Source: Methanobacteriota archaeon
GTDB lineage: Archaea > Thermoplasmatota > Thermoplasmata > Thermoplasmatales > ARK-15
Length of the DNA stretch: 64,000 nucleotides
Reading direction: 5' to 3'
Assembly: GCA_009758405.1 (NCBI GenBank)
Contig: WSBC01000004.1
Coordinates: forward strand, 114,634-178,633
Under the pieces are notes generated by a model that had not been told where the DNA came from, did not search any database, and was given only the letters and a program-made list of their open reading frames with translations. A program made the position numbers and the translations under genes. Below are positions 1 through 52,709 of the stretch, in pieces (the stretch's first letter is position 1; each line of letters begins with the position of its first letter).

Positions 1-2588
1 GTCTTATCGGAGAATTCCTTTGGGTTTGATTTCCTAATGTCATTTATAGTATAGAATCCTGATGAGAATATTTTTTCTGCATCTTCCATTGTAATACCTG
101 GAAGTTTTGACAATGACTTAATCTTATATTTTTTATAAACAGGCGAAATGCCTACATCAATTCCTCCCTCTAGAATATCATTGTAGCTCATTACAAGACT
201 TGCTGTAAATTTATCTGAAAATTTTATTTTTCTAATTTTATACTCTTCAACCAATCTATCAATATATGGATCTATTATATTCCTCAATAATTTTGAATCC
301 GAAAGGAATAGGTCAATATAATCATCGTATTCAACTTTTAAATTCTTTTTCATGGAGGCTATCCTTCTCAATAATTTCCTTAGAACTCCAAAATCCTCTA
401 TTTTTTTGTCAACTTCTTTATCAAAGAATATTTTGAAATTTGGAAGATCTATCATTTCATAATTCTTCGGAAGCTCATATATGAATTCTACCATCTGTGG
501 GGTAATTGTGATTAAATTTCCCTCAACACCAATCTCATAATTATTCTTCTCAATCTCCTCCTTCATTTTTTTCGCATCTATCTTGCTTAAAACATTTTCT
601 ATCATATTTGCAAATGGTTTGTAGATTTCTCCCAGATTCTCCCTTTTAAGTTTAACCTTGTATTCAAGTCCCATCCATTTTTCAGTAATCTCAATAGAAT
701 AGGCATTAAAATATCTTAATATATTCTGCTTAATATTTAAGAGTAAAGGAATATGTTTGAAATTTACCTCTATTATCAGTTTTTTCAAAGGTGTAGATAA
801 AGGTATGCCTTCTTTTATTTTTAAATTTAAAATCCTTTTTCTTGCCTCTATTAAATCTGGAATAAATCTTTCTAACATTTCGTTAACAGAAAACCTACCC
901 ACCCTGAAATCATTAAGGTTTATTTGGTGTTTTTGAGAGAATGAAGAAATGGTAGAGGGGAAAAATGGATATGATAATACAACAATTTCATTGAATATAC
1001 CTGAATTAATCTTTTCTTTTCTGTTTATTTTCATATAATCCCTGGATATACTCATTATTAAATTTTCATAATCTCTAAGTAATTTTCCAAAATCATAGTT
1101 TTCAATGAATTTTTCCATGTTTACTTTGAACCTTTCTACTTTTGAGTAAATCCACATGTCCAATATGTTTTCATTATCCCTTGTGCCATATATTTCCATA
1201 TAATTTAAAATATTTATAAGAATATTTTTAAGCTTTGAAAATCTTCTAATATCATTTTCATGAATTTTTCCATGCATTTTAGAAATAAATGAAATTCTTA
1301 GTACCTCTGGATCCTTGTCTTTGAATTTATCAAAATCCTTAAGATCTGTATATGATATAAAAACATCTGAAAAAAAATTCGACTTAAGTTCTGACATAAG
1401 TGCCAGCATCAAAAATCTATGCTTAAATTCCCTGTGGTTCAATACCCCCCTATTTTTAACAGATTTTATCATTTCATAAACGCCCAATGGTAATATATAT
1501 GGGTCATAGGAGTAATTTCTTTTCATCATTCCCCCGCAAGTACAGGGTTTTTCATTGAATCCGTACTCAATTTTCCCACATTTATCACATTCAAGAAGCG
1601 GTATTTTAGGGAAATTTCTAAAATCCTTGGATATTAAAATATCCTTCTTTGATATATTTATAAAATTCTTTGGAAATATATTAAAATTTAAGGATCCAAT
1701 TCTAACATATACGCCTTTAAGCCTTCTCTTAGTTACCCTTCTACCACAATAGTTGCAGTGTGGGATATTACCTTCAAAGGTTTCATGGTCTATTATTTCC
1801 ACCTCTACCCTTTCATTCTCACCAATTAACCTTTCATCCTCATCACTGAATTCTGATGAAAGAAATTTTGTTGGCAATTCCTTCTGTGAAATGGCTTTAA
1901 CATTCTTAAACCATTCAATTATCTCACTACCCTTCTTTTCTTCGGGTTTTGAAGGAAATATTATTGTTTTTTCTTTTAATTTTTCAAATATATAATTTTC
2001 CATTATCCATTTTTCATTTCCAAGATTTTGAACAATAAATATTGAGTCAGGATTTATATTAACACCACTAATCTGAAGAACAATATCTTCAAGGCCTGAA
2101 TGTATAAAGTATGTATCATCGGAGATCCTTATTTTTGCATAAAGAACCCTATATTCCCCCTTCTCCATATGTACATCCCTGTTTGAAAGTTGCGTTTTAC
2201 AGTATTCGCAATAGTAAGTCGATTTTTTTATCACCATTATGGAATTGGTTTTGAACAATTTTTCAATAATAGTATCAAGCGACCATATTGCATTCTGATC
2301 CGCAGAGGATATCAAAAACGGATTTGTGAACATGCTAAGGTATTCAATGAGTTCAGTAAAATTCATAACTGGTCTTTTAATTGTTACGGGAACAACAACA
2401 TCTGTAGGAATTATTAATTTGTCAGGTGTTAATTTATTGGCAGGGGTTTTTTTTGTGGCAATGGTCGAGGATATAGTTTCTTGAAGTTTTAAAATGAAGT
2501 CAGAATATGATATTGAATATATATCCTCCTTTTTAATTGGCAAATTTATTGGTAGAGTTGACCTGATTCTTGTTTTTTCAATGCTCAT
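1..2588 (-). CDS. Large class Ia aminoacyl-tRNA-synthetase-like protein (IleRS/ValRS-type architecture, catalytic signatures not recognisable) with extra C-terminal helix-hairpin-helix; 3' end beyond window
   Basis: Absent from supplied ORF track because it runs off the left edge. Manual minus-strand translation from ATG 2588-2586 gives >=862 codons with no stop seen; I verified only two segments codon by codon (MSIEKTRIRSTLPINL...SGFYTINDIRKSNPKEFSDK). Collinear landmarks: YYCEYCKTQLSNRDVHMEK, IPHCNYCGRRV, ISKDFRNFPKIPLLECDKCGKI, DFGKLLRDYENLIMSISRDYMKINRKE, EDFGVLRKLLRRIASMKKNLKVEYDDYIDL; HhH-like LPGITMEDAEKIFSSGFYTINDI. Confidence 0.6.
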   Translation of the reverse strand, partial: MSIEKTRIRSTLPINLPIKKEDIYSISYSDFILKLQETISSTIATKKTPANKLTPDKLIIPTDVVVPVTIKRPVMNFTELIEYLSMFTNPFLISSADQNAIWSLDTIIEKLFKTNSIMVIKKSTYYCEYCKTQLSNRDVHMEKGEYRVLYAKIRISDDTYFIHSGLEDIVLQISGVNINPDSIFIVQNLGNEKWIMENYIFEKLKEKTIIFPSKPEEKKGSEIIEWFKNVKAISQKELPTKFLSSEFSDEDERLIGENERVEVEIIDHETFEGNIPHCNYCGRRVTKRRLKGVYVRIGSLNFNIFPKNFINISKKDILISKDFRNFPKIPLLECDKCGKIEYGFNEKPCTCGGMMKRNYSYDPYILPLGVYEMIKSVKNRGVLNHREFKHRFLMLALMSELKSNFFSDVFISYTDLKDFDKFKDKDPEVLRISFISKMHGKIHENDIRRFSKLKNILINILNYMEIYGTRDNENILDMWIYSKVERFKVNMEKFIENYDFGKLLRDYENLIMSISRDYMKINRKEKINSGIFNEIVVLSYPFFPSTISSFSQKHQINLNDFRVGRFSVNEMLERFIPDLIEARKRILNLKIKEGIPLSTPLKKLIIEVNFKHIPLLLNIKQNILRYFNAYSIEITEKWMGLEYKVKLKRENLGEIYKPFANMIENVLSKIDAKKMKEEIEKNNYEIGVEGNLITITPQMVEFIYELPKNYEMIDLPNFKIFFDKEVDKKIEDFGVLRKLLRRIASMKKNLKVEYDDYIDLFLSDSKLLRNIIDPYIDRLVEEYKIRKIKFSDKFTASLVMSYNDILEGGIDVGISPVYKKYKIKSLSKLPGITMEDAEKIFSSGFYTINDIRKSNPKEFSDK

Positions 2589-2622
2589 TTACATAAATAG
2601 TATATTAACAATATATTAAAAA

Positions 2623-13420: not shown

Positions 13421-14310
13421 ATTACGAAGATATGGAATTTTTTGCGCCTGGTCACAGAGCCTGTGCAGGTTGTGCTGCACCAATAATAGTAAAGTGGGTG
13501 CTGAAAATATCAGGGCCCAAAACGATTGTTGTAAATGCCACAGGATGTTTAGAGGTTTTCTCAACCCCCTATCCCCATACATCTTGGAGGCTCCCCTGGA
13601 TTCATACTGCATTTGAAAATGCGGCTGCAACAGCAAGTGGTATAGATGCTGCCCTTAAGGCGATTGGAAAGAGGGATGATGTAAACATAGTTGTCTTTGG
13701 AGGAGATGGAGGTACATCAGACATTGGTTTTCAGAGCTTGAGCGGTATGGCAGAAAGGGGGCATAATATACTCTATATCATGTACGATAATGAGGCATAT
13801 ATGAATACAGGCATACAGAGATCTTCCTCAACTCCATTTGGGGCTTGGACCTCCACCACACAGGTAGGTCCCTCAAGACCCCTGGGCAAGGAGGAATTTA
13901 AAAAACCAATCGCAGAAATTATGGCTGCACATAAGATACCCTATGTGGCCACTGCAAATCCCGCATTCCTTCCGGATTTTAAAGCAAAGATACAAAAAGC
14001 ACTTTCAATAAAGGGTCCAAAGTTCATACACACTATTTCAAGCTGTACAACGGGATGGAGGCATGATCCAAGCAAGACTATTGAAATTATGCGTCTTGCC
14101 ACAGAAACAGGTATTTTCCCTCTATGGGAAATAGAAAATGGAGATTTCTCCAAAATAAAAATTACCTATATGCCAAAACAGAGAAAACCTGTTGAAGAAT
14201 ATTTAAAACCCCAGGGAAGGTTTAGACACCTTTTCAATGAGCCAGAAAAAATAAAGGAAATACAGAAGATGGTTGATGAATGGTGGGCTAAGTTTGAAAC
14301 AAAATCTTAA
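13417..14310 (+). CDS. porB: 2-oxoacid:ferredoxin oxidoreductase, beta subunit (TPP-binding)
   Basis: 297 aa; GHRACAGCAAP, GGDGGTSDIGFQSLSG, YDNEAYMNTGIQRSSSTP; ATGA overlap with alpha. Confidence 0.85.
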   Translation: MNYEDMEFFAPGHRACAGCAAPIIVKWVLKISGPKTIVVNATGCLEVFSTPYPHTSWRLPWIHTAFENAAATASGIDAALKAIGKRDDVNIVVFGGDGGTSDIGFQSLSGMAERGHNILYIMYDNEAYMNTGIQRSSSTPFGAWTSTTQVGPSRPLGKEEFKKPIAEIMAAHKIPYVATANPAFLPDFKAKIQKALSIKGPKFIHTISSCTTGWRHDPSKTIEIMRLATETGIFPLWEIENGDFSKIKITYMPKQRKPVEEYLKPQGRFRHLFNEPEKIKEIQKMVDEWWAKFETKS

Positions 14311-15806
14311 ACCATTGGCATCAGACTAACATTTGGGAATCCCTTATTCCTGTCTACAATCAGAGAGTGATAAATTATTCTAGGCTTTATTCCATAGATG
14401 AATGGAACATTTTCTATTTCCACAAGCTTAAGGTAATAATCGGATATATTAATTATTTCATTCTTTAACGACTGTGATTCCCTCACCATGAGTATTGCAA
14501 CATCGGAGGATGATTTAACTGACTGTGCCATATGGAATAATTCCTTTATTGCATTATCAGTTCCTTTTATGTATTCGAGTGTATCAGTACCTATAAAGTT
14601 TAGTACACTCTTATTTTCAAAACCAGTTAGATCAAGTATTGCCCTCAAAAGCCTCTGGTTAACCTGTTGTTCGTCCTTTCCACCAGCAGCAACAACATAT
14701 GGGATGTTTGATTCCTCAACTGTATAATCAACGTATCTTACTTTTTTTCTAAATATATCTGGATCTATGAATCTTGTAAAATCCTTTTCAAGTCTCATTG
14801 GATTCCATCCACCAAGAGGTATCATAAAAATTCCAATATCGTTATATAGAAAGTTTAATCCAATTGGTCTAAATAAAAGTCTTATCTCTTCCATAGAAAT
14901 ATCTTTTCCTATTTCAATTGTAAGGAATGATGAAGGTCTTATTCCATTACCAAGCATTTTATCTAAATCAGGAATTCCTGTGGAATAATAGTTATCATTT
15001 TTTGTTGGTTCAAACTTTGTAATCTCTCTTTTTTCATATTCTTCTGGGTAGAATGTAAGGAATTTACCACCATAAAGTGTATATGAATAACTTGACTGGA
15101 ATATTTCCACTCCCCTAAGCTTATTTATTTTCAATATCCTTTTCCTTCTTCCATCCTCCACGTCATGGTAAAGATATATCACACCATCAACAATATAATC
15201 CTCCGGGCTTATATCCCCCTTTTCTGAAACAAATATTATAGAGGCATTTGCACCTTCTACGAGATCATTCTGTATCATTGATACGAATTGATCTTCCCTA
15301 ATACCAAACCTGGAGGTGATTCCCTCTACAGAATCTATTACGACTACACTTTTGTTTGGCAAATTCATTTCAATCTCATCATATACACGTTTAACTTCTG
15401 GGGCTTGCCTTCCCTGAAAAACCTTTTGATATCCTGATCTTGGAACCTTTTTTGGTTGTTCACCGGTCATCTCCTGTAAAACTCTTCTCCCATACTCCTT
15501 AATAGGCTTTTCTTCCTCCTGAATCTGCGATAGAGCCTCAAGTAGTAGTTTTGAGGCCACAAGGAGTCTGAGGTTCTTTTCCATTCCTTTAAGCCAAGGA
15601 AATTGCTGATAAAGGCTAGCATCTCCCACCCTGGTTGAAAGATAAATAATGTTACTTTTTCCCTGCAATGTTTCTAGTATTTGCAGAGAAATTGTTGTTT
15701 TCCCACCTCCCGGAGGCCCCTTTACCAGTAGAGAGTTGCCATTTTTTGAAAGTAAAAACTGTAAAAGCTCATATGGAAATCTGTAATTTATATTCAATCC
15801 ATTCAT
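14307..15806 (-). CDS. KaiC/GvpD-like RecA-superfamily ATPase (two-domain)
   Basis: 499 aa; Walker A GPPGGGKTT, Walker B VVVIDSVEG, KINKLRGVE; C-terminal half has the same fold pattern but no Walker A. Confidence 0.65.
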   Translation of the reverse strand: MNGLNINYRFPYELLQFLLSKNGNSLLVKGPPGGGKTTISLQILETLQGKSNIIYLSTRVGDASLYQQFPWLKGMEKNLRLLVASKLLLEALSQIQEEEKPIKEYGRRVLQEMTGEQPKKVPRSGYQKVFQGRQAPEVKRVYDEIEMNLPNKSVVVIDSVEGITSRFGIREDQFVSMIQNDLVEGANASIIFVSEKGDISPEDYIVDGVIYLYHDVEDGRRKRILKINKLRGVEIFQSSYSYTLYGGKFLTFYPEEYEKREITKFEPTKNDNYYSTGIPDLDKMLGNGIRPSSFLTIEIGKDISMEEIRLLFRPIGLNFLYNDIGIFMIPLGGWNPMRLEKDFTRFIDPDIFRKKVRYVDYTVEESNIPYVVAAGGKDEQQVNQRLLRAILDLTGFENKSVLNFIGTDTLEYIKGTDNAIKELFHMAQSVKSSSDVAILMVRESQSLKNEIINISDYYLKLVEIENVPFIYGIKPRIIYHSLIVDRNKGFPNVSLMPMV

Positions 15807-16270: not shown

Positions 16271-18163
16271 ATGAAAAAAATTAATAAGACCTCCATATCA
16301 ATTTTCGTTTCAATTTTGCTCATAACACTACTAGGAATTTTCCTAAGAATATTACCCTCCTACAGTTATTCCATATGGGGTGTGGACTACGGTATCTATT
16401 ATGCTCTCACCACGGCCTTTGTTAATTTAGGGTTGATATTTCATCCACTTCCTTCAATATGGGGAAGTTCAGGTTATGGAAATTTTCCTATGTTTTACTG
16501 GACCATGATTTTTATACATGATATTACAAATTTAAGTGTAAATTTATTGCTTTTAAAAGTTCCGCCTATATTTGCAGGGCTTACAATTCCAATAATTTAT
16601 TTTATTGGAAAAAAACTGACAAATTCCTATGTTATAGGTATAATTTCTGCATTATTTTTAGCAATTAATCCCATGGAGGTTTTTGAAACATCAATGGTGG
16701 GATTACTTGTATTTGGGCATCTTTTCCTTCTGCTTTCAATACTCTTTTTCATATATTCTAGAGACAATAAGTATTTCTATTTGCCCTTAATTTTATCCTC
16801 ATTTTCATTGATACTTTCCCATCACTTGAGCACATATATGTATATAATTTCTATATTTGGTATAATATACCTAACAAGACTAATAAAGGGTAATTATAAT
16901 AATTATAAGTATGAACTTATATATTTTCTTGCTTTCACTGCAGCAACCTTCTCATATTGGCTCATAATGGTTCCTTCCATGTATTCATTCATAGAGCAGG
17001 GATTTTTAGGAATAATTCCCTGGTATGGAGTTATTGCAATATTTTATATTATTATTTTATTTCTGCTATATATTGTAGGATTCCTTGAAAAATATGTAAA
17101 AAAGATTTCACACATCAACATAGAGATAAAAAATTCCTATTCATTTCTTTTAACACTTTTGCTTGTATTTTCAATATTCATTTTACTCATTACAATAGGT
17201 ATTAAGGGAATTAGGATTCAACCAATAGGAATCATTTACTCCATTCCCTTCATAATTACAATAGGATTTATTGGAGTTGGAATTAATAAAATTAAAAATT
17301 ATGGTGAGGGAGAGATTATTCTATTTGGATGGATATCATTACTCTCATTTTCTTTGATTTATTCAACAATCACCTGGAACGGTGTTTTAATTCCCTATAG
17401 GTATCTTGAGTATTTATTTGAACCCTTTTCAATTTTTGGTGGAATTGGTGTTTATGAAATTTATAGATCCTTTTCTATTAAAAAAATTGGTGAAGAGAGA
17501 TATTATTATTTACCCCCGGATATAGGGGCAAAAGGTAGCTTAATAAGTGGTGAGATAAGATCTGCACCACCAATCTATTTTTCAAATCAATACAAAAAAA
17601 GGGTTTTAGTAAAGGTGGAGAAGGGGGACTTTAAGGTATTTTTTGCAATATTTCTAATAGTGATTGTAATGGTCTCTCTTGTTACTGCATATCCATTCAT
17701 AAACCAGGTAAGTGAGGTTTCACAGAATTACGTAACTCCTGTTATGATGAGTGGCATAATATGGATAGAAAAAAATGGTAATAAAAATTATTCCGTGGCC
17801 ACAGATGCTGTGGATGGATTATATCTTGAGGCGCTTGGTTTTAATTCAACATTTGAATATACCTACTACCTATGGAATTCTTCTTCCTGGAAGGATGCAA
17901 TATATGAACTCGAAGGACTGAATGGAACATATCCAAGGGTAGGTTATGTCTTAATTAATTCAAATATGTATAATAATGGTGTTTATGGTTATCAATTATC
18001 TACCCATCCCTCCTATGATCCACCTATTTATATGAGCAATTCTTCATTCAATAAATTCTTTAAAGAGCCATTCCAGGTTGCATATTATAATTCTACCGCT
18101 GATAAGTCTCAATGGGTTTATGTTTTTATTGTTAACTGGACATTTATTGAATCCAGCAGGTGA
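16271..18163 (+). CDS. Polytopic membrane protein with C-terminal extracytoplasmic domain; possible GT-C-type glycosyltransferase (AglB/PMT-like), function uncertain
   Basis: 630 aa, >=12 predicted TM, then a soluble C-domain rich in N-x-S/T sequons. No canonical WWDYG motif (nearest: VATDAVDGLYLEALG). Confidence 0.35.
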   Translation: MKKINKTSISIFVSILLITLLGIFLRILPSYSYSIWGVDYGIYYALTTAFVNLGLIFHPLPSIWGSSGYGNFPMFYWTMIFIHDITNLSVNLLLLKVPPIFAGLTIPIIYFIGKKLTNSYVIGIISALFLAINPMEVFETSMVGLLVFGHLFLLLSILFFIYSRDNKYFYLPLILSSFSLILSHHLSTYMYIISIFGIIYLTRLIKGNYNNYKYELIYFLAFTAATFSYWLIMVPSMYSFIEQGFLGIIPWYGVIAIFYIIILFLLYIVGFLEKYVKKISHINIEIKNSYSFLLTLLLVFSIFILLITIGIKGIRIQPIGIIYSIPFIITIGFIGVGINKIKNYGEGEIILFGWISLLSFSLIYSTITWNGVLIPYRYLEYLFEPFSIFGGIGVYEIYRSFSIKKIGEERYYYLPPDIGAKGSLISGEIRSAPPIYFSNQYKKRVLVKVEKGDFKVFFAIFLIVIVMVSLVTAYPFINQVSEVSQNYVTPVMMSGIIWIEKNGNKNYSVATDAVDGLYLEALGFNSTFEYTYYLWNSSSWKDAIYELEGLNGTYPRVGYVLINSNMYNNGVYGYQLSTHPSYDPPIYMSNSSFNKFFKEPFQVAYYNSTADKSQWVYVFIVNWTFIESSR

Positions 18164-20046: not shown

Positions 20047-20811
20047 TTACCTTTTTTCAAGGTCCTCGCCACCAGAATATGTCAACTGTATATTGCTATA
20101 AACGTCCTCCATTCCCCTGAGATCCCTAGAGGAAACAAAAAGAGGTTTAAAATTAACCCCAAGTGATTCCATTGCCTTGAACATCTCCAGTGCATACTCT
20201 TTTATCATACTCTGCCTTTCTTGTCTAAGATCCATATAGAGGGTATCCACATCCTCAGACCAAGACCTGATTTTAAATATTTCAGAATCATCAAGGAGGT
20301 CTATCTTGTTAATTATGTTTACATATGGCAAATAAAATCTGAAAAAAACAGAAGCTGAAAGGGTGAGCAATGATACATATCCTGAAGGGGAAATTGCAAG
20401 CATTGGATCCATAATAAATGCCATATAACTCTCCCTTTCGGATAGACCTCTTATTATGAGATCGCTAGATGTTCTAAAGGCAAACAATTCTAGCTGCCCC
20501 GGGGTGTCTATTATTGCATAATCTGCATCCATTGAAACTATTTCTTCCCTAATTTCATCAATCTCTGATGCAATCAGATCTGATGCTAGTATTTGTGCAC
20601 CATTTGGTCCAAGAGAATATTCTTCCATGATGTCCTGAAGCTGGTACCAGTCCCTGACATCCACATCCGGTCTATAGGGTATGTTCTCAACCCCAGGGTC
20701 TAAGTTAACGGTAATTGCCTCATACTGATTATTTCTCATCCATTCCTGAAGGGCATAGGTGAATGTGGACTTCCCAGAGCCTGCAGGTCCTGTAACATAA
20801 ATATATATCAT
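20047..20811 (-). CDS. GPN-loop GTPase (PAB0955/Npa3 family)
   Basis: 254 aa; GPAGSGKST, NLDPG, LGPNGA, IDTPGQLE, NKIDLL; 4-nt overlap with the PolD large subunit gene. Confidence 0.85.
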   Translation of the reverse strand: MIYIYVTGPAGSGKSTFTYALQEWMRNNQYEAITVNLDPGVENIPYRPDVDVRDWYQLQDIMEEYSLGPNGAQILASDLIASEIDEIREEIVSMDADYAIIDTPGQLELFAFRTSSDLIIRGLSERESYMAFIMDPMLAISPSGYVSLLTLSASVFFRFYLPYVNIINKIDLLDDSEIFKIRSWSEDVDTLYMDLRQERQSMIKEYALEMFKAMESLGVNFKPLFVSSRDLRGMEDVYSNIQLTYSGGEDLEKR

Positions 20812-23800
20812 ATAAAATCCTCCAGTTTTTTTCCATTAGATTTCTGTTGTTGTTCCTCAACAAATAATGTTCTTATTGCTTGCTCTGCAAAAAGGAGTCT
20901 CTGCCTTGTATAAGTACTTATCTTATACTCCTCTGAAATATCCTTTGCTATATCTAAGTACTTAGTTATTCCGCCCTCTGATATTGTAAGAACTATGTTC
21001 CCTCCACATTCACATTTACCAGTTAGAGGCATCCTCCTGTACCTCCTGTTACATTTAGAACATCTGAATTCCTGAGTGCCATACTTTCTCATATTTCCCA
21101 TTATGTCTGGAATGAAATGGTGTGAAACAATTCTGTTTGCAACATCCTTAGCATCTACTGCTCTGATCTTTTTTGCAAGAAGAAGTTGTGCATTTGTTTT
21201 CTTTTCCATTTCACCAAGTGTTTTGTATGCGCTCTCCAGTACTCCAATATTAATGTTGTTTGTATCGTGTGTGAATCCATAATCAATATATTCCTTACCT
21301 TTACCGAGCCTTTCTTTTATTGTTTCCATTTTTGAATTTATTTCCGATGGCTTTGCATTTCTTATTGAGGCTTCAAAAAATTCTAATGGATAATTAAACA
21401 TTATATCAACATTCAATGCCTCCTTATCCACCTCTCTTGGATCAACCCTGAGGGAGAGGAAAAGTGGAGCATCCATTAGGCTACCTCTTGAGGAGGGAAG
21501 ATAGTGCCTTGAAAAGTTTATCAATGCATCCAACAATAGCATTACAGAGTCCTCATCCCCATCACAGTTTCTTCTCTTCGCAGCATGATAAAATGGATGA
21601 GCAAAACATGCCTGGGCATCAGTATAACCTATAATCCTTGCAAGTATTGCACCTGATGTATGTGGTGAAAGACCCATCACAAGATGACCTATTAGATCTT
21701 CAATATTCCTTGCTTTATAATATGGTTCAAGACCATAATACCTTTGAAGAAGATCATCTATAAACCTTGAGACGCTCAGTAGGTACTCACCACCCCTTTT
21801 AGAAATTATTATATCCTGAGGGAAAATCTGCAAAACCTGCCCACCATCCCTCAATTCATTGCCGTAAATATCCTTGGTATAACCAAGCTCTCTAGCCCTT
21901 TCAACTGACAAACCAATCTCACGTGGTTTAAAATGTGTAATTGCCAGGTTACTCATATCAAACCTGGATGTACCATCCTTGAAAACCCAGACATTATGCA
22001 TTGCTCTCAGTATTCCCTTCTCCAGTGGCTCGGGCAAACTTTCCCTTGAAATCAGGCCCTTTACACCCTTAACATCGAAATCATAATCTACTATCCCTAA
22101 GTTATCCAATGCTCTCCTGAACTCCTCAGCTATGGGTATTTCTATTTTTTCTGTTTTTCCAGTGAACACAGTTCTGGTACCGCATTTTTCGCACCTTACC
22201 TTATATGTCTTTCTTTTACACCTCGGGCAAACCCTTACTCCTGCTTCTACAGAAACTATCTCATTAGAATTTTCAGTCAACAATGAAATCGATCTTCTTT
22301 TACCGATTGTTTCACCAATTGGGAATAGCACATTCACTGGTGGTTTCATTTTTCTTTCCGCTGCCTTCTCGGGTCTCCCCATTCTTGCTCCTACTCTGGT
22401 AGGCGCTCTGGGCATCACCTTTATTCCAGAAAATTTTTCAAGTAATTCAAAAACATCCTTTACATCATTTTCCCACTTCATTTTCTCAATTATTTTTCCA
22501 TTATTTTCACCTAAACCTAGGAAATTTATCAACACATCTAAATATCTCTCAATTATATATCCATCTCTATCCCTGTGTAAAACTCCAAGTGTGCAAAGGA
22601 TCTCCTTAATTTCATCATTCCTTTTTAAAATCAGTCTTCCTTCCTCAATCCTTCCATTTGAGATTATATGATCCCTCAACTTCTTTAATTCCTCTAAGCT
22701 TATATCGTGCCAGAAAAGGTTGAAGTCAGGATGGATGGGTATTCCATATTTTTTTGAAATCTCATAGGCCTCACTAAATGTTATTTTATCTAACTTTCCC
22801 AATCCCTTGGATGAGGCAATTGCATTCCACCATTCACGTGTAAAGGATCCCCTTTTTAATGGATAATTGTTTTCAAGGAATTCACCAAATGGAATTAGAA
22901 TCTCGCCATTATCATATATCTTTACTACCCTTCTTGATATTTCCATTGCTTCTTTATATGTATTAACCTGAACAAGGTCACCATTATCTAGCAAAACTAT
23001 AGGACCCTCTATGCTATCACAAGAAGTTATACCTGCAGCCTTTCCAGGGAATTCCAATTTCAGCTGTGTACCTATTGCTATGAAGTTGTCCATCAACACC
23101 ATGGATGCGGGATTTATGGATACTGTGGCAAGACCTCCCGTCCTGCATCTTCCATATCTCAGCCTGAAACCGCCCTTCATATCGGAATGTGAAAAAACAG
23201 GTCTTCCTGCAACTATATCCTCAATATATCTCTCTGAGGATTCACTCAAGCTATCGGATTTCTCTTGCCTAATAAGATTATCAAGGAATCCCCATCCATC
23301 AACATTCATTTTTTCTACAATGCCCTTTAATTTCCTTGCCTTCTGTATTATACCCTCTGCTACAACCAGGCACATTCCGCCCCTTACCCTGTTTGTCTCA
23401 ATCCCTGGTAAGTCCCTGAAGCCTGACACCTCTGTATCCAATGTTCCCTCTCCATCTATGCACACTGGGCAATTTTTTATTGTTTCTTCAACCTCTGTTG
23501 TAGAGGGCTGGTATTGTAAATGCTCTACATTCCCATATATTTGTATCTCTTCTTTATATCTCTCCACAATCTCAGGTGTTGGTTTAAATTGCCCAAGACC
23601 AAGGTCCCTCCTCACAATATCACCTATCAGTACACTAAGTGCCTGAGCAGTACCACCTGCACCCCTTATGGGTCCTGAATAATAAATTGAAAGATATTCT
23701 GTTCCATCGGCGTTTTTCTTAATCTTTACATCAGTGATTCCCTCCAGTGGTGCCACCAATATGCCTTCTGTTAATATGGCAAGACCTATCCTCACTGCCA

Positions 23801-24083
23801 AATCAAGTGCCTTTATTCTATCCTCAGAAAATTTCTTTGCTATTTCCTTTGCAGCCATTATGCTTACTGTCTCCCTATCATATTTTTTTGAATATTCCCT
23901 TATGATATTTGCCACACCCTCTATACCAAATAATTTTTCAACCCTTGATGCTAGATCCTCCGCCATAGGAATTTCAACATGATCCTCTGGATCTTTACCC
24001 ATTTCCCTTGCTTTTTCAGCAATTTCATAACATTTTTTAGCGTTTTCTTCAAGATTTTTGAAATAATAATCCATATGGATCAC
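20808..24083 (-). CDS. polC: DNA polymerase II (PolD) large subunit DP2
   Basis: 1091 aa; Zn modules CPRCKRKTYKVRCEKCG and CSKCNRRYRRMPLTGKCECGG, GIRGAGGTAQ-type region (PIRGAGGTAQAL), NCDGDED catalytic motif; no intein. Confidence 0.9.
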   Translation of the reverse strand: MIHMDYYFKNLEENAKKCYEIAEKAREMGKDPEDHVEIPMAEDLASRVEKLFGIEGVANIIREYSKKYDRETVSIMAAKEIAKKFSEDRIKALDLAVRIGLAILTEGILVAPLEGITDVKIKKNADGTEYLSIYYSGPIRGAGGTAQALSVLIGDIVRRDLGLGQFKPTPEIVERYKEEIQIYGNVEHLQYQPSTTEVEETIKNCPVCIDGEGTLDTEVSGFRDLPGIETNRVRGGMCLVVAEGIIQKARKLKGIVEKMNVDGWGFLDNLIRQEKSDSLSESSERYIEDIVAGRPVFSHSDMKGGFRLRYGRCRTGGLATVSINPASMVLMDNFIAIGTQLKLEFPGKAAGITSCDSIEGPIVLLDNGDLVQVNTYKEAMEISRRVVKIYDNGEILIPFGEFLENNYPLKRGSFTREWWNAIASSKGLGKLDKITFSEAYEISKKYGIPIHPDFNLFWHDISLEELKKLRDHIISNGRIEEGRLILKRNDEIKEILCTLGVLHRDRDGYIIERYLDVLINFLGLGENNGKIIEKMKWENDVKDVFELLEKFSGIKVMPRAPTRVGARMGRPEKAAERKMKPPVNVLFPIGETIGKRRSISLLTENSNEIVSVEAGVRVCPRCKRKTYKVRCEKCGTRTVFTGKTEKIEIPIAEEFRRALDNLGIVDYDFDVKGVKGLISRESLPEPLEKGILRAMHNVWVFKDGTSRFDMSNLAITHFKPREIGLSVERARELGYTKDIYGNELRDGGQVLQIFPQDIIISKRGGEYLLSVSRFIDDLLQRYYGLEPYYKARNIEDLIGHLVMGLSPHTSGAILARIIGYTDAQACFAHPFYHAAKRRNCDGDEDSVMLLLDALINFSRHYLPSSRGSLMDAPLFLSLRVDPREVDKEALNVDIMFNYPLEFFEASIRNAKPSEINSKMETIKERLGKGKEYIDYGFTHDTNNINIGVLESAYKTLGEMEKKTNAQLLLAKKIRAVDAKDVANRIVSHHFIPDIMGNMRKYGTQEFRCSKCNRRYRRMPLTGKCECGGNIVLTISEGGITKYLDIAKDISEEYKISTYTRQRLLFAEQAIRTLFVEEQQQKSNGKKLEDFI

Positions 24084-25539: not shown

Positions 25540-26217
25540 CTATTTCATTAAATATTCCTTTATTTCTTTTAAAAAATCAATAAATTCCTCTCTTTTAACC
25601 CTTCCAGTGTTTACATTCCTCGGGCTCGGGTGATAATGCATAAAAACTCTTACACCATTTATATCAATATATGATCCATTTACAAACTCATCCTTTATAT
25701 TAATCCCCTTCTCCCTATAATACATTTTGAGAGATTGGAATGCCACCCTTCCTAGAACTAAAATCGCCCTAAGGTTTCTCATAGTATCTATCTCGAATTT
25801 AAGATATGGCAGGCAATTTTTCATTTCTTCGGGTGTAGGTCTATCGTTTGGAGGTACACATTTTACAACAGCAGTAACATAAGTATCATAATATATTAAG
25901 CCATCTTCCCTACTAATAGAACTACCTTTATTTGTAAATCCAACCTCATAAAGGCAGGATACAAGAAATTCTGCACTCTTATCACCCGTAAATATCCTGC
26001 CAGTCCTGTTTCCACCTGTGGCTGCAGGTGCAAGACCTAGTATGAGAAACTTACCATTATGATCACCATAACCCGGTACGGGCTTGCTCCAGTAGTTTTC
26101 TCCAAAGTATCTATTTTTTCTTTCCGATACTCTTACCCTAAATTCAACTAACCTTGGGCATTTTTCACATCTTACAAGAAATTTATTCATTTCTTCAAGA
26201 TCCTTGAACATTTTCAA
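25540..26217 (-). CDS. udg: Uracil-DNA glycosylase, family 4/5 (Fe-S type)
   Basis: 225 aa; CEKCPRL, ILGLAPAATGGNRTGRIFTGD (A-P-A rather than G-E-x-P-G suggests the UDGb-like family 5), HPSPRN. Confidence 0.75.
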   Translation of the reverse strand: MKMFKDLEEMNKFLVRCEKCPRLVEFRVRVSERKNRYFGENYWSKPVPGYGDHNGKFLILGLAPAATGGNRTGRIFTGDKSAEFLVSCLYEVGFTNKGSSISREDGLIYYDTYVTAVVKCVPPNDRPTPEEMKNCLPYLKFEIDTMRNLRAILVLGRVAFQSLKMYYREKGINIKDEFVNGSYIDINGVRVFMHYHPSPRNVNTGRVKREEFIDFLKEIKEYLMK

Positions 26218-28175
26218 TAAAGCCTTATTGATTCAAGATTCCTTGGCGAAATTGAATTAAAACCAAATTTATAGCTAAAGGTACCCGCCAGGTATTCGCA
26301 ATTCTCATTATCACCATGACATGTAATTATCCTGTTTGGCTTTGGAGACATGGAGGTAATGTACTGTATAAGCTGTTTTCTATCCGCATGTCCAGAGAAT
26401 CCTTCAACAGTTATTACCTGAAGATTGATATCTATGTTCACCATGGTTCCCTTTCTTGGCAGGGAAACACTCTTTACACCAGATTGAATTTTTCTTCCCA
26501 AGGTTCCCTCTGCCTGATAACCTACAAATAAAAGTGCATTCTTAGGATCATCGGCAAGGTTCATAAAATATTCCAGTACTGGTCCACCGTTCATCATGCC
26601 TGAGGTGGCAAGTATTACGGCAGGTTCCTGGTCATCTATTATCTTTTCTCTTGTTTCCGATGTATCCACCCTAACAAATATATCTGAAAGGAATGGGTTA
26701 TCTGTTTTTTTAAACATCCTTTCCCTTAGATCTCGATTGAGATATTCTGGATAGGCAGCATGAATTGCAGTTGCTTCCCATATCATTCCATCTAAATATA
26801 CTGGTACCTTTGAAATTTCATTTTTCCTCATATAATCCTCAAGAACCACCATCACCTCCTGGCTCCTTCCCACTGCAAAAACAGGGATTAAAACCTTTCC
26901 CCTTCTGTTAATAACATCCTGGACAACATTTTTTAAATTTTCACTTGCCTCTTTCCTTGTGGGCTGAAAATTGTCCTTTCCACCGTAGGTGGATTCAATT
27001 ACCACAGTCTCAGCCCTAGGAAACCTGTTTGTAGCAGGAGAAAATAGCCATGTTTTCTCAAACTTTATATCGCCTGTTATTACAACATTATGAAGTCCCT
27101 CTCCTATGTGAAAATGTGCAACAGATGAGCCAAGAATATGACCAGCATTATGAAATGTTAATCTAACATCAGGTGTAATGTCCGTGGTTTCGCCATATTC
27201 AATAGTTATTGTTCTTTTAAGCATCTCTTTTATGTCCTTGAAATCGTAGGGTACCTTATTGCCTTCTGCATGTGCCAGTTTAATATAATCCATTTGTAAG
27301 AGAACTGCTAGGTCTCTGGTAGGAAGCGTTAAATAAACTGGGCCCTTGTAATTATACTTGTATAGAAAAGGTATGAGGCCTGAATGGTCAATGTGGGCAT
27401 GCGTAAGAACAACAGCATCAAGATATTTGAATGGATTATTTTCATTCTGAAACGCATCCTGTGACCATACCTCTGGAACATAGAGATATGGAATACCCGA
27501 CCAGGGCTCATTTCCTTGAACATTTGCCACATTTACCCCACAATCAACCAAAATCCTACTATTTCTTGTCATGAGAAGAGTGGCGGATCTCCCCACCTCC
27601 CTGTAACCACCTAGTGCAATTATTCTAACCCAGTTTTCTCCCTGTAACACAGGTCTATTCAATTTTTTTCCAATCTCCCTGAGGAACTCTCTTCTCATAT
27701 CCTTGTTTTCCTTGAGGAATTCTCTTACCTCTGTAACTATTCTGGATGGTATGGGGGGTGTTCTTATTACTTTGGGTGCCCATTTTATCCTCTTTTTAAT
27801 TTCATTTAATAAATAACCTTCCTTACCTATTACCAGACCTGGAGCTTCAGCAGCAATTACCACCTCACAGGTTTCAGGCTCAAAATAAATATCTGATACC
27901 CCTGCCTCAGGTGGAACAATCTTCATTATTTCCTCCCTTGCCTCATTCTCATCCATAAGAATTGATGGATCAGGCCTTATAGAAATTCTCCTCCTAATTT
28001 TTTGTGCTATTTGCTTTACAACATCAGGATTTTCAGTGAAAAAATCAATATCTTTAGTATAAACAACGATAATTGAGGCTTCAAAATCTATGCTAGTGAT
28101 GTTGATTGATGGTGCATATTCAAGAACGGCCATTTTCGTCTGTTCCAGTATATCCTCCCATTCTCCCGCAAACAT
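26214..28175 (-). CDS. aCPSF1: KH-domain beta-CASP metallo-beta-lactamase ribonuclease
   Basis: 653 aa; N-terminal KH-like GLVIGKEG, MBL motif THAHIDHSG, beta-CASP region, C-terminal HGD. Confidence 0.9.
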   Translation of the reverse strand: MFAGEWEDILEQTKMAVLEYAPSINITSIDFEASIIVVYTKDIDFFTENPDVVKQIAQKIRRRISIRPDPSILMDENEAREEIMKIVPPEAGVSDIYFEPETCEVVIAAEAPGLVIGKEGYLLNEIKKRIKWAPKVIRTPPIPSRIVTEVREFLKENKDMRREFLREIGKKLNRPVLQGENWVRIIALGGYREVGRSATLLMTRNSRILVDCGVNVANVQGNEPWSGIPYLYVPEVWSQDAFQNENNPFKYLDAVVLTHAHIDHSGLIPFLYKYNYKGPVYLTLPTRDLAVLLQMDYIKLAHAEGNKVPYDFKDIKEMLKRTITIEYGETTDITPDVRLTFHNAGHILGSSVAHFHIGEGLHNVVITGDIKFEKTWLFSPATNRFPRAETVVIESTYGGKDNFQPTRKEASENLKNVVQDVINRRGKVLIPVFAVGRSQEVMVVLEDYMRKNEISKVPVYLDGMIWEATAIHAAYPEYLNRDLRERMFKKTDNPFLSDIFVRVDTSETREKIIDDQEPAVILATSGMMNGGPVLEYFMNLADDPKNALLFVGYQAEGTLGRKIQSGVKSVSLPRKGTMVNIDINLQVITVEGFSGHADRKQLIQYITSMSPKPNRIITCHGDNENCEYLAGTFSYKFGFNSISPRNLESIRLY

Positions 28176-48278: not shown

Positions 48279-48672
48279 TGAAAAATTTCTTTCTTTACTT
48301 GATTCATTAATAGAGATAAATGAAAATACACCTGTAATAGTTGAGGGAATAAGGGATGAAAAGGCCCTTAGAAAAATAGGGCTTAAAGGAAAGATAATAA
48401 TTTTCAATAGGGGAAAGTCATTATATGATTTTTCTGAAATTATTTCGAATTTGTACAATGAAGTAATAATTCTTTTTGATAATGATAGAAGGGGAAGGTA
48501 TTTGACAAGATACGTTTCAAGGATTCTTGAATCCAAGGGAGTGAGGGTAAATCTTGAATATAGAGATTTCATATTTTCAATGCTTGAGATGAAGGGTATC
48601 GAAGAGATTTCTACATTCTATGAAGAGTCCATGGAAAGAAGGATAAATGGCAAAAGGAGGAGGATGCAATGA
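48271..48672 (+). CDS. Toprim-domain protein (UPF0292-like)
   Basis: 133 aa; [18 protein letters not shown]...[14 protein letters not shown]. Confidence 0.6.
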
Positions 48673-50279
48673 TAGTCCTTGGAATAGAAGGTACCGCGCA
48701 CACACTAGGCATAGGAATAATTGAAGATGAAAAAATACTTGCCAACATAATGGACATGTTTGTGCCTGAAGAAGGTGGAATACATCCTAGAGAGGCTGCT
48801 GTTCACCATTCTAATAAATTCATACCTTCATTGAAAAAGGCATTGTCAATTGCTAAAATAGATATGAAGGATATTGACCTGGTTGCATTCTCTAAGGGTC
48901 CCGGTCTAGGGCCATGTTTGAGAACTGTTGCTACAGCTGCAAGGGCAATCTCCTTAAAGATGAATATTCCAATAATTGGGGTTAATCATAGTATTGCCCA
49001 CCTCGAAATAGGAAGATTGACAGGTGGTGTGGAAGATCCTGTAATGACCTATGTGTCCGGTGGAAATACTCAGATAATATCATATTCAAATGGAAGGTAC
49101 AGGGTTTTTGGAGAGACTCTTGACATAGGTATTGGAAATCTTTTAGATAAGTTTGCAAGAGAGATAAACATACCATTTCCTGGAGGTCCAATGATAGAAA
49201 AATTGGCGAAAAATGGAAAAATATACTATGACCTTCCCTATTCAATAAAGGGTATGGATGTCTCATTCTCAGGGATATTGACCGCACTTAAATCATATCT
49301 GAGGCAAGGGGCCTCTCCAGAGGATCTCTCCTTCTCATTACAGGAAACAGTTTTTTCAATGATGACTGAGGTGACAGAAAGGGCCCTTGCGCATCTCCAT
49401 AAGGATGAGGTATTACTTACGGGTGGAGTTGCAAGGAATGGAAGGTTAAGGGAAATGATGAGAATCATGGCGGATGAAAGGGGTGCTATTCTTCATACAC
49501 CACCACCTGATCTTTGTGTGGATAATGGGGTAATGATTGCATATCTAGGAATGATAATGCACAGGGAGGGAATAAAAATGGATATTGAGGATACTTGGGT
49601 GGACCAGAAGTTCAGGGCAGACTCCATAGATGCCCCTTGGGTAAAGGAAAAGGTCCACTTTAAAAATTATCCTGAATTCCCCGGTGCAGAGGCGAGGATT
49701 ATTAAATCAAGGTATCTTGATATAGAGACAATAAGGAAGGAGAGGATAAGAAAGGCATACAGGATAAAGGAGATTGACGATTTTTTAAGGAGGGAAAGAA
49801 CAAAAAGGGAGGCAAGGATCTTGAATCTAATAAAAGCACTAGGTATAAATGCTCCATATGTATTAGATATTGACCTTAGAGAAGGGATTATGGAAATTTC
49901 ATTTATAGAGGGTAAAAACCTTAGGGAAATATTTGAAGAAATACCAGAAAATGAGAGGTATAGAATTGACGATGTAATAGGTTTATATATTGCAAAAATG
50001 CATAAAAAAGGAATTTCACATGGGGACATTACCACAAGCAACATAATGTATGATGGTATGAATGTTTACATAATAGATCCATCAATGGGGGATTTGAATT
50101 CAAAGGTGGAGGAGCTTGGAACAGATCTTCATCTATTGAAGGAATCCTTTCTCAGTGCACATTCAAATCTAATGGCGGATTTTGAAAGGATTATTCAAAG
50201 TTATCTTAAATATTATCCTGAGGGTATTGTAAACGTAGAAAGAATGAAGGAGATAGAGGGAAGGAGGAGATACTCATGA
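48669..50279 (+). CDS. kae1: Kae1-Bud32 fusion: tRNA t6A threonylcarbamoyltransferase + atypical kinase
   Basis: 536 aa; N-half [25 protein letters not shown]..; C-half RIO-like kinase ..[16 protein letters not shown]. Confidence 0.9.
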
Positions 50280-52081: not shown

Positions 52082-52154
52082 TGCCGTGGGCCGGGATTGA
52101 ACCGGCGGCCTCCAGATCTTCAGTCTGGCGCTCTCCCAGCTGAGCTACCACGGC
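52082..52154 (-). tRNA. tRNA-Phe (GAA)
   Basis: GCCGUGGUAGCUCAGCUGGGAGAGCGCCAGACUGAAGAUCUGGAGGCCGCCGGUUCAAUCCCGGCCCACGGCA folds as a cloverleaf with anticodon loop CU-GAA-GA; no encoded CCA; GC-rich island in an AT-rich spacer. Confidence 0.95.
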
Positions 52155-52328: not shown

Positions 52329-52709
52329 TTACTTGATGAAAAATATAGTTAGACCATCTATATCATCAAGAATAACCTTTATATCTGGATTCTCCAGGTC
52401 AACAATTTTACCCATCTTCTCCTTTATCATTTTTCCAACAATTCTATTATCCTCCATGGAATTATTCCTTTTTGACCTTACTGCAAATGATTTAAATTCA
52501 TAATCCTTCAATAATTCAGGTATTTCTTCAATTTTACTTATAACATATGCAATATTTCCTCCCTCAATCTCCCCATTATAAAATAAAAGTAGCTTGTTAC
52601 CAGATATCCTATAAATAAATTCGCCTTCACCCTTTAGAAACTTTCTTTTTAATGATTCTAGAAAATTTTTCAATTCGTTTCTGTTTTTAAAATAAAAAAC
52701 CTTTATCAT
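52329..52709 (-). CDS. Stand-alone THUMP-domain protein
   Basis: 126 aa; ..FAVRSKRNNSMEDNRIVGKMIKEKMGKIVDLENPDIKVILD.. (THUMP-like pattern); ATGA overlap with the upstream gene. Confidence 0.55.
   Translation of the reverse strand: MIKVFYFKNRNELKNFLESLKRKFLKGEGEFIYRISGNKLLLFYNGEIEGGNIAYVISKIEEIPELLKDYEFKSFAVRSKRNNSMEDNRIVGKMIKEKMGKIVDLENPDIKVILDDIDGLTIFFIK

Follow-up and report, generated by a model that had tools for sequence, protein, structure and literature searches.

A probable non-catalytic descendant of isoleucyl-tRNA synthetase kept beside the ordinary enzyme in hot-spring Thermoplasmata

The first 2588 nucleotides of the DNA analysed here, a 64,000-nucleotide stretch of contig WSBC01000004.1 from a thermoplasmatal archaeon (hereafter the window), encode on their minus strand most of a protein that descends from isoleucyl-tRNA synthetase (IleRS) and from which the signatures of catalysis and editing have disappeared. 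We hold this protein to be, very probably, a selected, aminoacylation-dead IleRS derivative. As to what it does, we consider it fairly probable that this non-catalytic descendant is kept by selection beside an ordinary IleRS as a non-enzymatic adaptor, sensor or regulator that binds tRNA(Ile); whether tRNA(Ile) binding is itself the job, as its sequence may indicate, we judge to be evenly balanced.

A preliminary description of this DNA had proposed an open frame of at least 862 codons that starts at an ATG at position 2588 and is missing from the supplied list of open reading frames (ORFs), and translation of the minus strand bears this out, the frame being stop-free for 862 codons. The ORF is absent from the list because the list omits ORFs that cross the window end; for positions 1-2588 it gives only short ones on the plus strand. 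The rest of the gene was recovered from a public copy, P0001, on a 46.5-kb ENA metagenome contig (L001), which shows the complete protein to be 918 amino acids long and adds 56 residues, comprising the end of a helix-hairpin-helix (HhH) domain and a zinc ribbon, that lie beyond the window edge at L001:12587-12757. The window copy and P0001 differ at two residues, both encoded within 2480-2492 on the minus strand (L33/S33 and Q36/K36), and the otherwise identical sequences show no synonymous differences in 2586 nt. Ten close homologues with 42-70% protein identity and ORF lengths of ~915-923 amino acids make up alignment A1, which served as the family profile and contains more than 100 invariant columns, all zinc ligands among them.

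3..2588, minus strand: coding sequence of the IleRS-derived pseudo-synthetase, residues 1-862 of 918 (open frame; P0001 match; hhalign; Foldseek; dN/dS, the ratio of nonsynonymous to synonymous substitution rates)

Descent from IleRS and loss of its catalytic and editing signatures

Over residues ~92-815 the protein is homologous to IleRS. Comparison of the family profile with a canonical IleRS profile in hhalign gave a probability of 100% (E=1.1e-45) over 799 columns, the two being alignable only from residue ~92, and a search of the PDB with the family profile returned the type-2 IleRS 8c8u (E=5.8e-16) in two blocks, one covering the CP1 zinc knuckle and the start of the editing domain, the other the helical anticodon-binding domain (ABD) and the C-terminal module. 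For the single sequence, DUF5915 was the sole Pfam match above threshold (E=3.9e-12, 46.6 bits vs a 27-bit cut-off), NCBIfam yielded only a negligible ValRS match (E=0.19, 9.9 bits), and neither a PDB search nor a plasmid tblastn search found a match. The class I synthetase assignment that the preliminary description had offered holds, and structure points the same way: with the AlphaFold model as query, the top Foldseek match was IleRS2 8c8v (E=1.4e-35), followed by yeast IleRS, IleRS1, ValRS and LeuRS, and the isolated IleRS editing domain 1wny was also matched. The model has a mean pLDDT of 69.6 and is confident for residues 120-295 and 440-918, with pLDDT below 50 for residues 1-118, 297-331 and 358-419; the low confidence in these would-be Rossmann segments could reflect either a shallow alignment or a real loss of fold. 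From the CP1 zinc knuckle onward, the domains follow one another as in canonical IleRS, down to the C-terminal anticodon-recognition module, and the five IleRS landmarks named in the preliminary description all align at the expected positions by hhalign, MAFFT and mapping onto yeast IleRS chain 8wnd_A.

We next considered how much of the enzyme survives within this framework. Motif presence was judged from alignments; regular-expression scans missed HIGH even in canonical enzymes. We mapped 94 invariant residues of the canonical IleRS alignment onto the family, and only 4 of the 46 in the catalytic core are kept, none of them catalytic.

First Rossmann half: 21 invariants, 0 kept; alignable by hhalign only from residue ~92
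Second Rossmann half / CP3: 17 invariants, 2 kept (P330 and zinc ligand C334)
KMSKS / SC-fold: 8 invariants, 2 kept; the four of the KMSKS loop align to a gap
CP1 knuckle and editing domain: 31 invariants, 7 kept, of which the zinc-knuckle cysteines are 4
ABD: 10 invariants, 5 kept
C-terminal module: 7 invariants, 3 kept

The segments in which the losses occur are arranged on the minus strand as follows.

2235..2588, minus strand: N-terminal remnant of the first Rossmann half, residues 1-118 (MAFFT alignment; 0 of 21 invariants; AlphaFold pLDDT below 50)
1701..2234, minus strand: shortened editing-like domain enclosed by the CP1 zinc knuckle, residues 119-296 (alignments; AlphaFold pLDDT 77-91; 1wny match)
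1329..1700, minus strand: remnant of the second Rossmann half with a CP3-type zinc site, residues 297-420 (2 of 17 invariants; MAFFT alignment)
1179..1328, minus strand: expected KMSKS-loop region, residues 421-470 (loop deleted; subsequent '..D.LR' helix kept)
2004-2030, minus strand: QNxGNExWI, residues 187-195
1947-1973, minus strand: EK..IFP.K, residues 206-214
1782-1802, minus strand: VEIIDHE, residues 263-269

The N-terminus is a remnant of the 'DGPPY..HxGx..KD' segment, of which only P13 and D30 survive in a MAFFT alignment that includes intermediate forms, and the HIGH position reads KKED here and KKED, DNET or DWNE across members. The DVWFDSG and DQTRGW motifs are also lost. In all 10 family members, and in other reduced forms too, canonical residues G605, M608, K610 and G613 face a gap in the alignment; R431 and N459 are retained in the region where the KMSKS loop would be expected. 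The hexapeptide 'SKMHGK' (residues 435-440) was rejected as a KMSKS relic; the loop gap lies upstream of 'DPEVLR', which aligns to the post-KMSKS 'G.D.LR'. The preliminary description was therefore right to report no HIGH or KMSKS signature, and needs correcting where it called the motifs degenerate, as the KMSKS loop has been deleted outright. In keeping with these losses, tRNA-synt_1 has no Pfam match at E<=1 in this sequence, and in distant reduced relatives it appears weakly over the CP1 knuckle (25.8 bits in P0013 and 19.3 in P0012, with a gathering score of 22.7). The homologous body as a whole is ~260 residues shorter than a 1065-residue IleRS.

The editing insertion had been described as short and without the TTxPWT and GTGxVH motifs, and alignment agrees. 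At the TTTPxT motif the family reads G-P-E-gap-V, with T222-T224 replaced by G-P-E, and the GxVHxAP..G block (G327-G336) is deleted. The domain keeps its fold without TTTPWT and GTGxVHxAP, and it carries three family-specific invariant motifs, QNxGNExWI, EK..IFP.K and VEIIDHE, which have no counterpart in canonical IleRS and may mark a new binding or catalytic surface. Since HIGH, the KMSKS loop, and the amino-acid-binding, ATP-binding and editing motifs are all lost, the protein should be unable to activate isoleucine, to charge tRNA or to proofread. A divergent IleRS that is still active, such as an antibiotic-resistant second copy of the IleRS2/MupA kind, would explain why the fold and the best matches are those of the mupirocin-resistant type-2 enzyme; we regard this explanation as effectively refuted, because the protein has neither HIGH nor a KMSKS loop, has lost DVWFDSG and DQTRGW and has no tRNA-synt_1 match, whereas IleRS2/MupA keep these motifs.

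Selection, promoter element and the coexisting canonical enzyme

Several lines of evidence indicate that the gene is maintained. Two unsaturated orthologue pairs each gave a dN/dS of 0.13 and a third pair 0.08, and a survey of the phyletic distribution found full-length intact ORFs in ~11 GTDB species, all of them represented by metagenome-assembled genomes (MAGs) of hot-spring Thermoplasmata (ARK-15 'Aciduliprofundum', DRTY-7, KMA bins and TVZ bins). One orthologue, at L014:8531-11256 (CAYSIM010000020.1), matches as two pieces covering residues 1-382 and 415-917, perhaps because of a frameshift or an assembly error, perhaps because the gene is truly disrupted. A BRE/TATA-like element lies 24-34 nt upstream of the ATG, directly behind the stop codon that ends the upstream Nnr gene.

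2612..2622, minus strand: BRE/TATA-like promoter element AATTTTTAATATA / AAATTTATAATAT

The element recurs at equal distance in L001, L002, L005, L007-L010, L012, L015 and L024, whose proteins are 42-70% identical, and its sequence suggests that the gene has a putative promoter of its own that would give a leaderless or short-leader transcript. An operon with Nnr is not favoured, given the conserved TATA-like element in the 29-49 nt gap, though read-through may occur. These data bear directly on the idea that the protein is a decaying relic, a functionless pseudogene in progress, as might be supposed from its massive loss of catalytic motifs and the ~260 residues gone from its body. The low dN/dS values, the intact ORFs in ~11 species, the 100+ invariant columns with every zinc ligand and the conserved promoter element effectively refute it, and we consider it exceedingly improbable.

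In three lineages, a canonical IleRS of ~1026 residues occurs in the same MAG as the paralogue: both genes lie on one contig in GCA_049966535.1 and GCA_049966975.1, 8 kb apart in one lineage, and elsewhere they are found on separate contigs (51 and 54 in PNIT01; 3 and 36 in JAVBIZ01). The coexisting copies have PHxGH, KMSKS, TTTPWT and GTGIVHIAP intact and are ordinary Thermoplasmata IleRSs, 62-63% identical to that of cultured Aciduliprofundum. Displacement by a foreign IleRS was accordingly rejected, as was a division into 'HxGH-type' and 'HxGT-type' IleRS lineages, which are motif classes and not clades (0/100 bootstrap); P0181 and P0182 were set aside as coming from unrelated genomes. No canonical ileS lies within the 64-kb window, and we infer from the motif losses in the pseudo-synthetase that the window's own genome must have one elsewhere. 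By computable criteria, homology to IleRS, coexistence with the canonical enzyme in three lineages and purifying selection place the protein among putative synthetase-derived pseudoenzymes, and its lost motifs put it outside functional IleRSs, in line with the earlier suggestion of a pseudo-synthetase paralogue.

The same coexistence raises the possibility that the protein is a non-enzymatic partner or subunit of canonical IleRS or of some other translation complex, perhaps as a cofactor for tRNA delivery or channelling in the manner of accessory proteins such as HisZ or those of the Arc1p/Trbp111 type. The retained tRNA-binding modules and the 8-kb spacing of the two genes on one contig in one lineage would fit such a role, but other lineages show no conserved adjacency to ileS, and we think a dedicated partner of this kind very unlikely.

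The anticodon-reading half, the tail and the proposed function

Two zinc sites and much of the anticodon-reading half have been retained. The CP1 knuckle ligands C127, C130, C278 and C281 are invariant, with C127/C130/T132 corresponding to C182/C185/T187 of the canonical knuckle and C278/C281 to C402/C405, and the CP3-type site (C334, C337, C or H at 349, and C351) is invariant or nearly so. Furthermore, ISKDF..PLLECDKCG aligns to DWCISRQR..PIWxCxxCG, and the ABD helix and the C-terminal RRIxxM(K/R)K motif align as well. The two domains that follow the lost KMSKS loop together keep 8 of their 17 invariants.

771..1178, minus strand: helical ABD, residues 471-606 (Anticodon_1; 5 of 10 invariants; mapping through 8wnd_A)
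144..770, minus strand: type-2 C-terminal anticodon-recognition module (DUF5915; ARD2-ARD3), residues 607-815 (DUF5915; 8c8u match; residue mapping)

Anticodon_1 is sub-threshold in this sequence (E=0.0039, 17.5 vs 25.1 bits); several family members have it in their precomputed Pfam annotation, and in more distant reduced forms it exceeds the gathering score. To locate the residues that read the anticodon, we aligned the family profile to yeast IleRS (8wnd_A) and checked the numbering against published residues. In the yeast enzyme, Arg739 is the essential reader of A35/U36 and Arg999 reads N34; an R999K variant keeps ~30% activity, and Drosophila naturally has Lys at that position (PMC11685878). 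Arg739 corresponds to R523, which is invariant in 15 of 15 reduced-form sequences, and Arg999 to position 747, where only K or R occurs. The two other reader positions, Arg736 and Arg838, correspond to K520 (K in 8 members, Q in 2) and K/R590, respectively.

Behind the synthetase body, the preliminary description had noticed a helix-hairpin-helix, which is probably real, although diverged in this protein.

3..143, minus strand: RadA-N-terminal-like (HhH)2 domain, residues 816-862 of 816-880 (family profile vs 2bke; HHH_5 sub-threshold; relatives' tails)

The family profile matches the RadA N-terminal domain 2bke (E=2.4e-4) and also the HhH regions of Hel308 and NusA, and the homologous tails of relatives pass the HHH_5 threshold with 37-131 bits. 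Just past the window edge the HhH is followed by a CPxC...CPxC zinc ribbon, after which all 10 family members and P0012 end without a DUF835 domain. Because the tail resembles the dsDNA-binding N-terminal domain of RadA/Rad51 and the HhH of Hel308, and is both basic and conserved (22-24% invariant columns), one might suppose that the protein is mainly a DNA-binding, chromatin or repair factor, in which the RadA-like (HhH)2 and zinc ribbon are the business end and the IleRS body is a scaffold or ligand sensor. However, the same tail occurs on catalytically intact IleRSs, for which signalling or a tRNA-related task is the more natural role, a role on DNA alone needs no invariant anticodon-reading residues, and there is no conserved linkage to DNA-metabolism genes. 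We therefore consider a primarily DNA-directed function improbable.

Retention of the anticodon-reading residues, together with the basic character of the ABD and the HhH (net charge +4.2 and +4.3, respectively), makes a role in nucleic-acid binding plausible. Under the function that we favour, the pseudo-synthetase would still dock on the anticodon arm of tRNA(Ile), or on an RNA that mimics it, without contacting the acceptor end, and the basic (HhH)2 and zinc-ribbon tail would supply a second, sequence-independent contact with nucleic acid or with a partner. In this way it could act as an adaptor, sensor or regulator of tRNA(Ile) and not as an enzyme.

A number of observations weigh against this proposal. 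The anticodon readers were mapped through alignments of only 17-25% identity, most members have Lys in place of Arg at two of the four reader positions, and Q996, E981 and the ABD invariants R749, E786 and R842 are not kept. HHH_5 reaches only 18.0 and 22.1 bits in this protein against its 27-bit cut-off. The neighbouring genes, Nnr upstream and a convergent Rpe downstream, are conserved within the family and give no functional hint. A residual nucleotide or amino-acid pocket is possible because the AlphaFold model is poor where such a pocket would lie. Finally, conservation is as high in the degenerate core and the editing-like domain, which hold new invariant polar motifs, as it is in the tRNA-binding half, with residues 297-420 being the most conserved and most basic segment of the whole protein (23% invariant columns, net charge +5.9), which hints at a function beyond passive tRNA binding.

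This unexplained conservation and the new polar motifs, including an invariant D251, keep alive the hypothesis of a new enzymatic activity, either an aminoacyl-tRNA-dependent transferase that uses Ile-tRNA(Ile) as a donor or a new hydrolytic or binding activity in the editing-like domain. A precedent exists in SbzA, an IleRS homologue from the altemicidin/SB-203208 biosynthetic pathway that is an active transferase recognising (Ile-)tRNA(Ile) (PMC6331615), and which is the only characterised IleRS-derived protein with a non-translational role; the other known IleRS paralogues are the active, mupirocin-resistant IleRS2/MupA. By contrast with the window protein, the bacterial SbzA keeps HIGH and KMSKS in slightly modified form, has a complete Rossmann fold and is encoded within a biosynthetic cluster, whereas here the motifs are gone and the neighbours are housekeeping genes. 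Searches of Pfam, NCBIfam and the PDB recognised no known catalytic constellation. We consider a new enzymatic activity unlikely, and return to a non-enzymatic tRNA(Ile)-binding protein as the better account.

A graded clade of tail-bearing synthetases

The preliminary description took the HhH to have been appended to a pseudo-synthetase, and on this point the wider family leads to a different conclusion. An exhaustive profile search returned 40 representatives below E=1e-30, all Thermoplasmatota where named, which form a graded series.

(a) Intact IleRSs with long tails, having one to several HhH, usually a zinc ribbon and usually a C-terminal DUF835: P0027, P0036, P0043, P0048, P0050, L018, L017
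(b) Partly eroded forms: P0018, P0029, P0031, P0033
(c) Full-size forms that lack HIGH and have the KMSKS loop deleted: P0021, P0024, P0026, P0030, P0034, P0035, P0038, P0041, P0046
(d) Reduced bodies still with DUF835: P0013-P0016, L028-L031
(e) Reduced bodies without DUF835: P0012 and the window's family

The tailed intact forms (L017, L018, P0027, P0036, P0043, P0048, P0050 and P0037) keep HxGT, a KMSKS-type loop, TTTPWT and TGxVHxAPGHG, and the C-terminal extensions of these apparently active enzymes run to 200-1200 residues; P0018 has TPR repeats as well. DUF835, which Galperin et al. 2018 (PMC5847659) class as an inactivated KaiC (iKaiC) domain serving archaeal response regulators as their output, occurs in P0013-P0016, L028-L031, L017 and L018. 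Examples of intact tailed enzymes, followed by reduced, motif-less proteins that end in DUF835, are located as follows.

L018:3881-8032: intact tailed IleRS, 1383 residues, Methanomassiliicoccales MAG JAXGRO010000012.1
L017:162-4214: intact tailed IleRS, 1350 residues
L029:1015-4014, L030:5147-7920, L031:7917-11135, L028:684-3593 and L025:5862-9083: reduced, motif-less IleRS-like proteins ending in DUF835

In a bootstrapped neighbour-joining tree of the shared C-terminal half, the window's family (100/100), all reduced forms (100/100) and all tail-bearing forms as against untailed IleRSs (83/100) were recovered as groups; the order of decay within the tailed clade is poorly resolved, and long-branch attraction is possible. 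As the tail is also found on intact IleRSs and the tail-bearing forms group together, the tail is older than the loss of catalysis, and the window's family is the most reduced end of a clade of tail-bearing Thermoplasmatota IleRSs. Aconitase X genes downstream are common to reduced forms with iKaiC (L029 and L031) and intact tailed forms (L017 and L018), which suggests that some of the degenerate genes occupy the locus of a once-active gene. A divergently transcribed AspRS/AsnRS-type gene adjoins the reduced genes of L029-L031 upstream. The window's family differs from these in its neighbourhood, with Nnr and Rpe as the flanking genes.

The closest relatives of the window protein, the tail-bearing Thermoplasmatota IleRSs, share with it the HhH, the zinc-ribbon tail and the C-terminal half; HxGT, the KMSKS-type loop, TTTPWT, TGxVHxAPGHG and DUF835/iKaiC, which the intact ones have, are all lost in its family. 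Canonical and type-2 IleRSs (P. megaterium IleRS2 8c8u/8c8v, yeast 8wnd and Aciduliprofundum) resemble it in domain order, zinc ligands, the fold of the ABD and the presence of basic residues where A35/U36 and N34 are read, and differ in having HIGH, the KMSKS loop, the editing motifs and ~260 further residues; the N-terminal 90 residues of the window protein cannot be aligned to them, and its (HhH)2 and zinc-ribbon tail is extra. In the GCN2 HisRS-like domain and in HisZ, catalysis was lost while ligand or tRNA binding was kept and reused in sensing or regulation. Relatives of the window protein carry a signalling-type iKaiC output domain much as GCN2 carries a kinase, whereas the window's own family is without an output domain and derives from another synthetase class and lineage. 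The nearest functional precedent is the LeuRS-I of Sulfolobaceae, which binds its tRNA and forms leucyl-adenylate without aminoacylation and matters for growth (Weitzel et al. 2020, via PMC9437257). Like the window protein it is an archaeal class Ia paralogue that exists beside a canonical enzyme and has a disrupted CP1 editing domain; it differs in being LeuRS-derived, in retaining its active site, and in having an acidic, divergent C-terminus and no HhH/zinc-ribbon tail (PMC9437257).

We also entertained a broader proposal, that the tail-bearing IleRS clade, dead form included, serves archaea as a sensor of isoleucine supply or of the charging state of tRNA(Ile). The body derived from IleRS would read the anticodon arm of tRNA(Ile), and the tail, consisting of (HhH)2, zinc ribbon and, in relatives, inactivated KaiC, would relay the signal to KaiC-type hubs or to nucleic acid. 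We regard this as improbable; if true, it would make the clade a functional analogue of the eukaryotic GCN2 HisRS-like domain. Amino-acid-starvation sensing in archaea is still poorly understood.

Elsewhere in the window are two KaiC/GvpD-like P-loop ATPase genes, at 14307-15806 and 52706-54775 (both minus strand), which could be relevant if the tail-bearing IleRS clade communicates with KaiC-type hubs; the product of the latter (689 residues) also matches DUF7504, to which L018 has a weak match in its DUF835 tail. The window further holds a 630-residue ORF without a Pfam match at E<=0.001 (16271-18163, plus strand), genes for MptE-like proteins, and housekeeping genes that mark the DNA as archaeal, among them a Kae1-Bud32 fusion (48669-50279, plus strand), the PolD large subunit DP2 (20808-24083, minus strand), FttA/aCPSF1 (26214-28175, minus strand) and tRNA-Phe(GAA) (52082-52154, minus strand); no tRNA(Ile) gene occurs within its 64 kb. 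On other contigs, a conserved type IV pilus-like operon with two T2SSF genes and a T2SSE ATPase follows the paralogue and Rpe (L001:13497-21938, L002:13428-22057 and L024:13470-22055) and adjoins a gene for a protein of 1376-1413 residues with CARDB and double-zinc-ribbon matches.

In the searchable literature we found no description of an IleRS-derived non-catalytic protein, nor of any fusion of IleRS, HhH, zinc ribbon and iKaiC, Makarova et al. 2017 on KaiC hubs lying outside that scope. A 2026 preprint that surveys ~96,000 IleRS sequences leaves HhH and KaiC-type extensions and paralogues unmentioned. Some proteins of this series are at present annotated as 'isoleucine--tRNA ligase' or 'class I tRNA ligase family protein', which for the degenerate forms is misleading in MAG metabolic reconstructions. 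The dead paralogue itself is moderately surprising. Synthetase-derived pseudoenzymes such as the GCN2 HisRS-like domain, HisZ and archaeal LeuRS-I have repeatedly proved to act in regulation or sensing. Of greater interest as a lead are the graded series and the IleRS-iKaiC fusions. A single phylum offers, in public data, a natural series from intact fused IleRS through motif-eroded full-size forms to reduced ones. That series makes three questions approachable, namely what role the tail plays when the synthetase is active, why selection maintains a dead one, and whether archaea couple tRNA(Ile) status to KaiC-like signalling.

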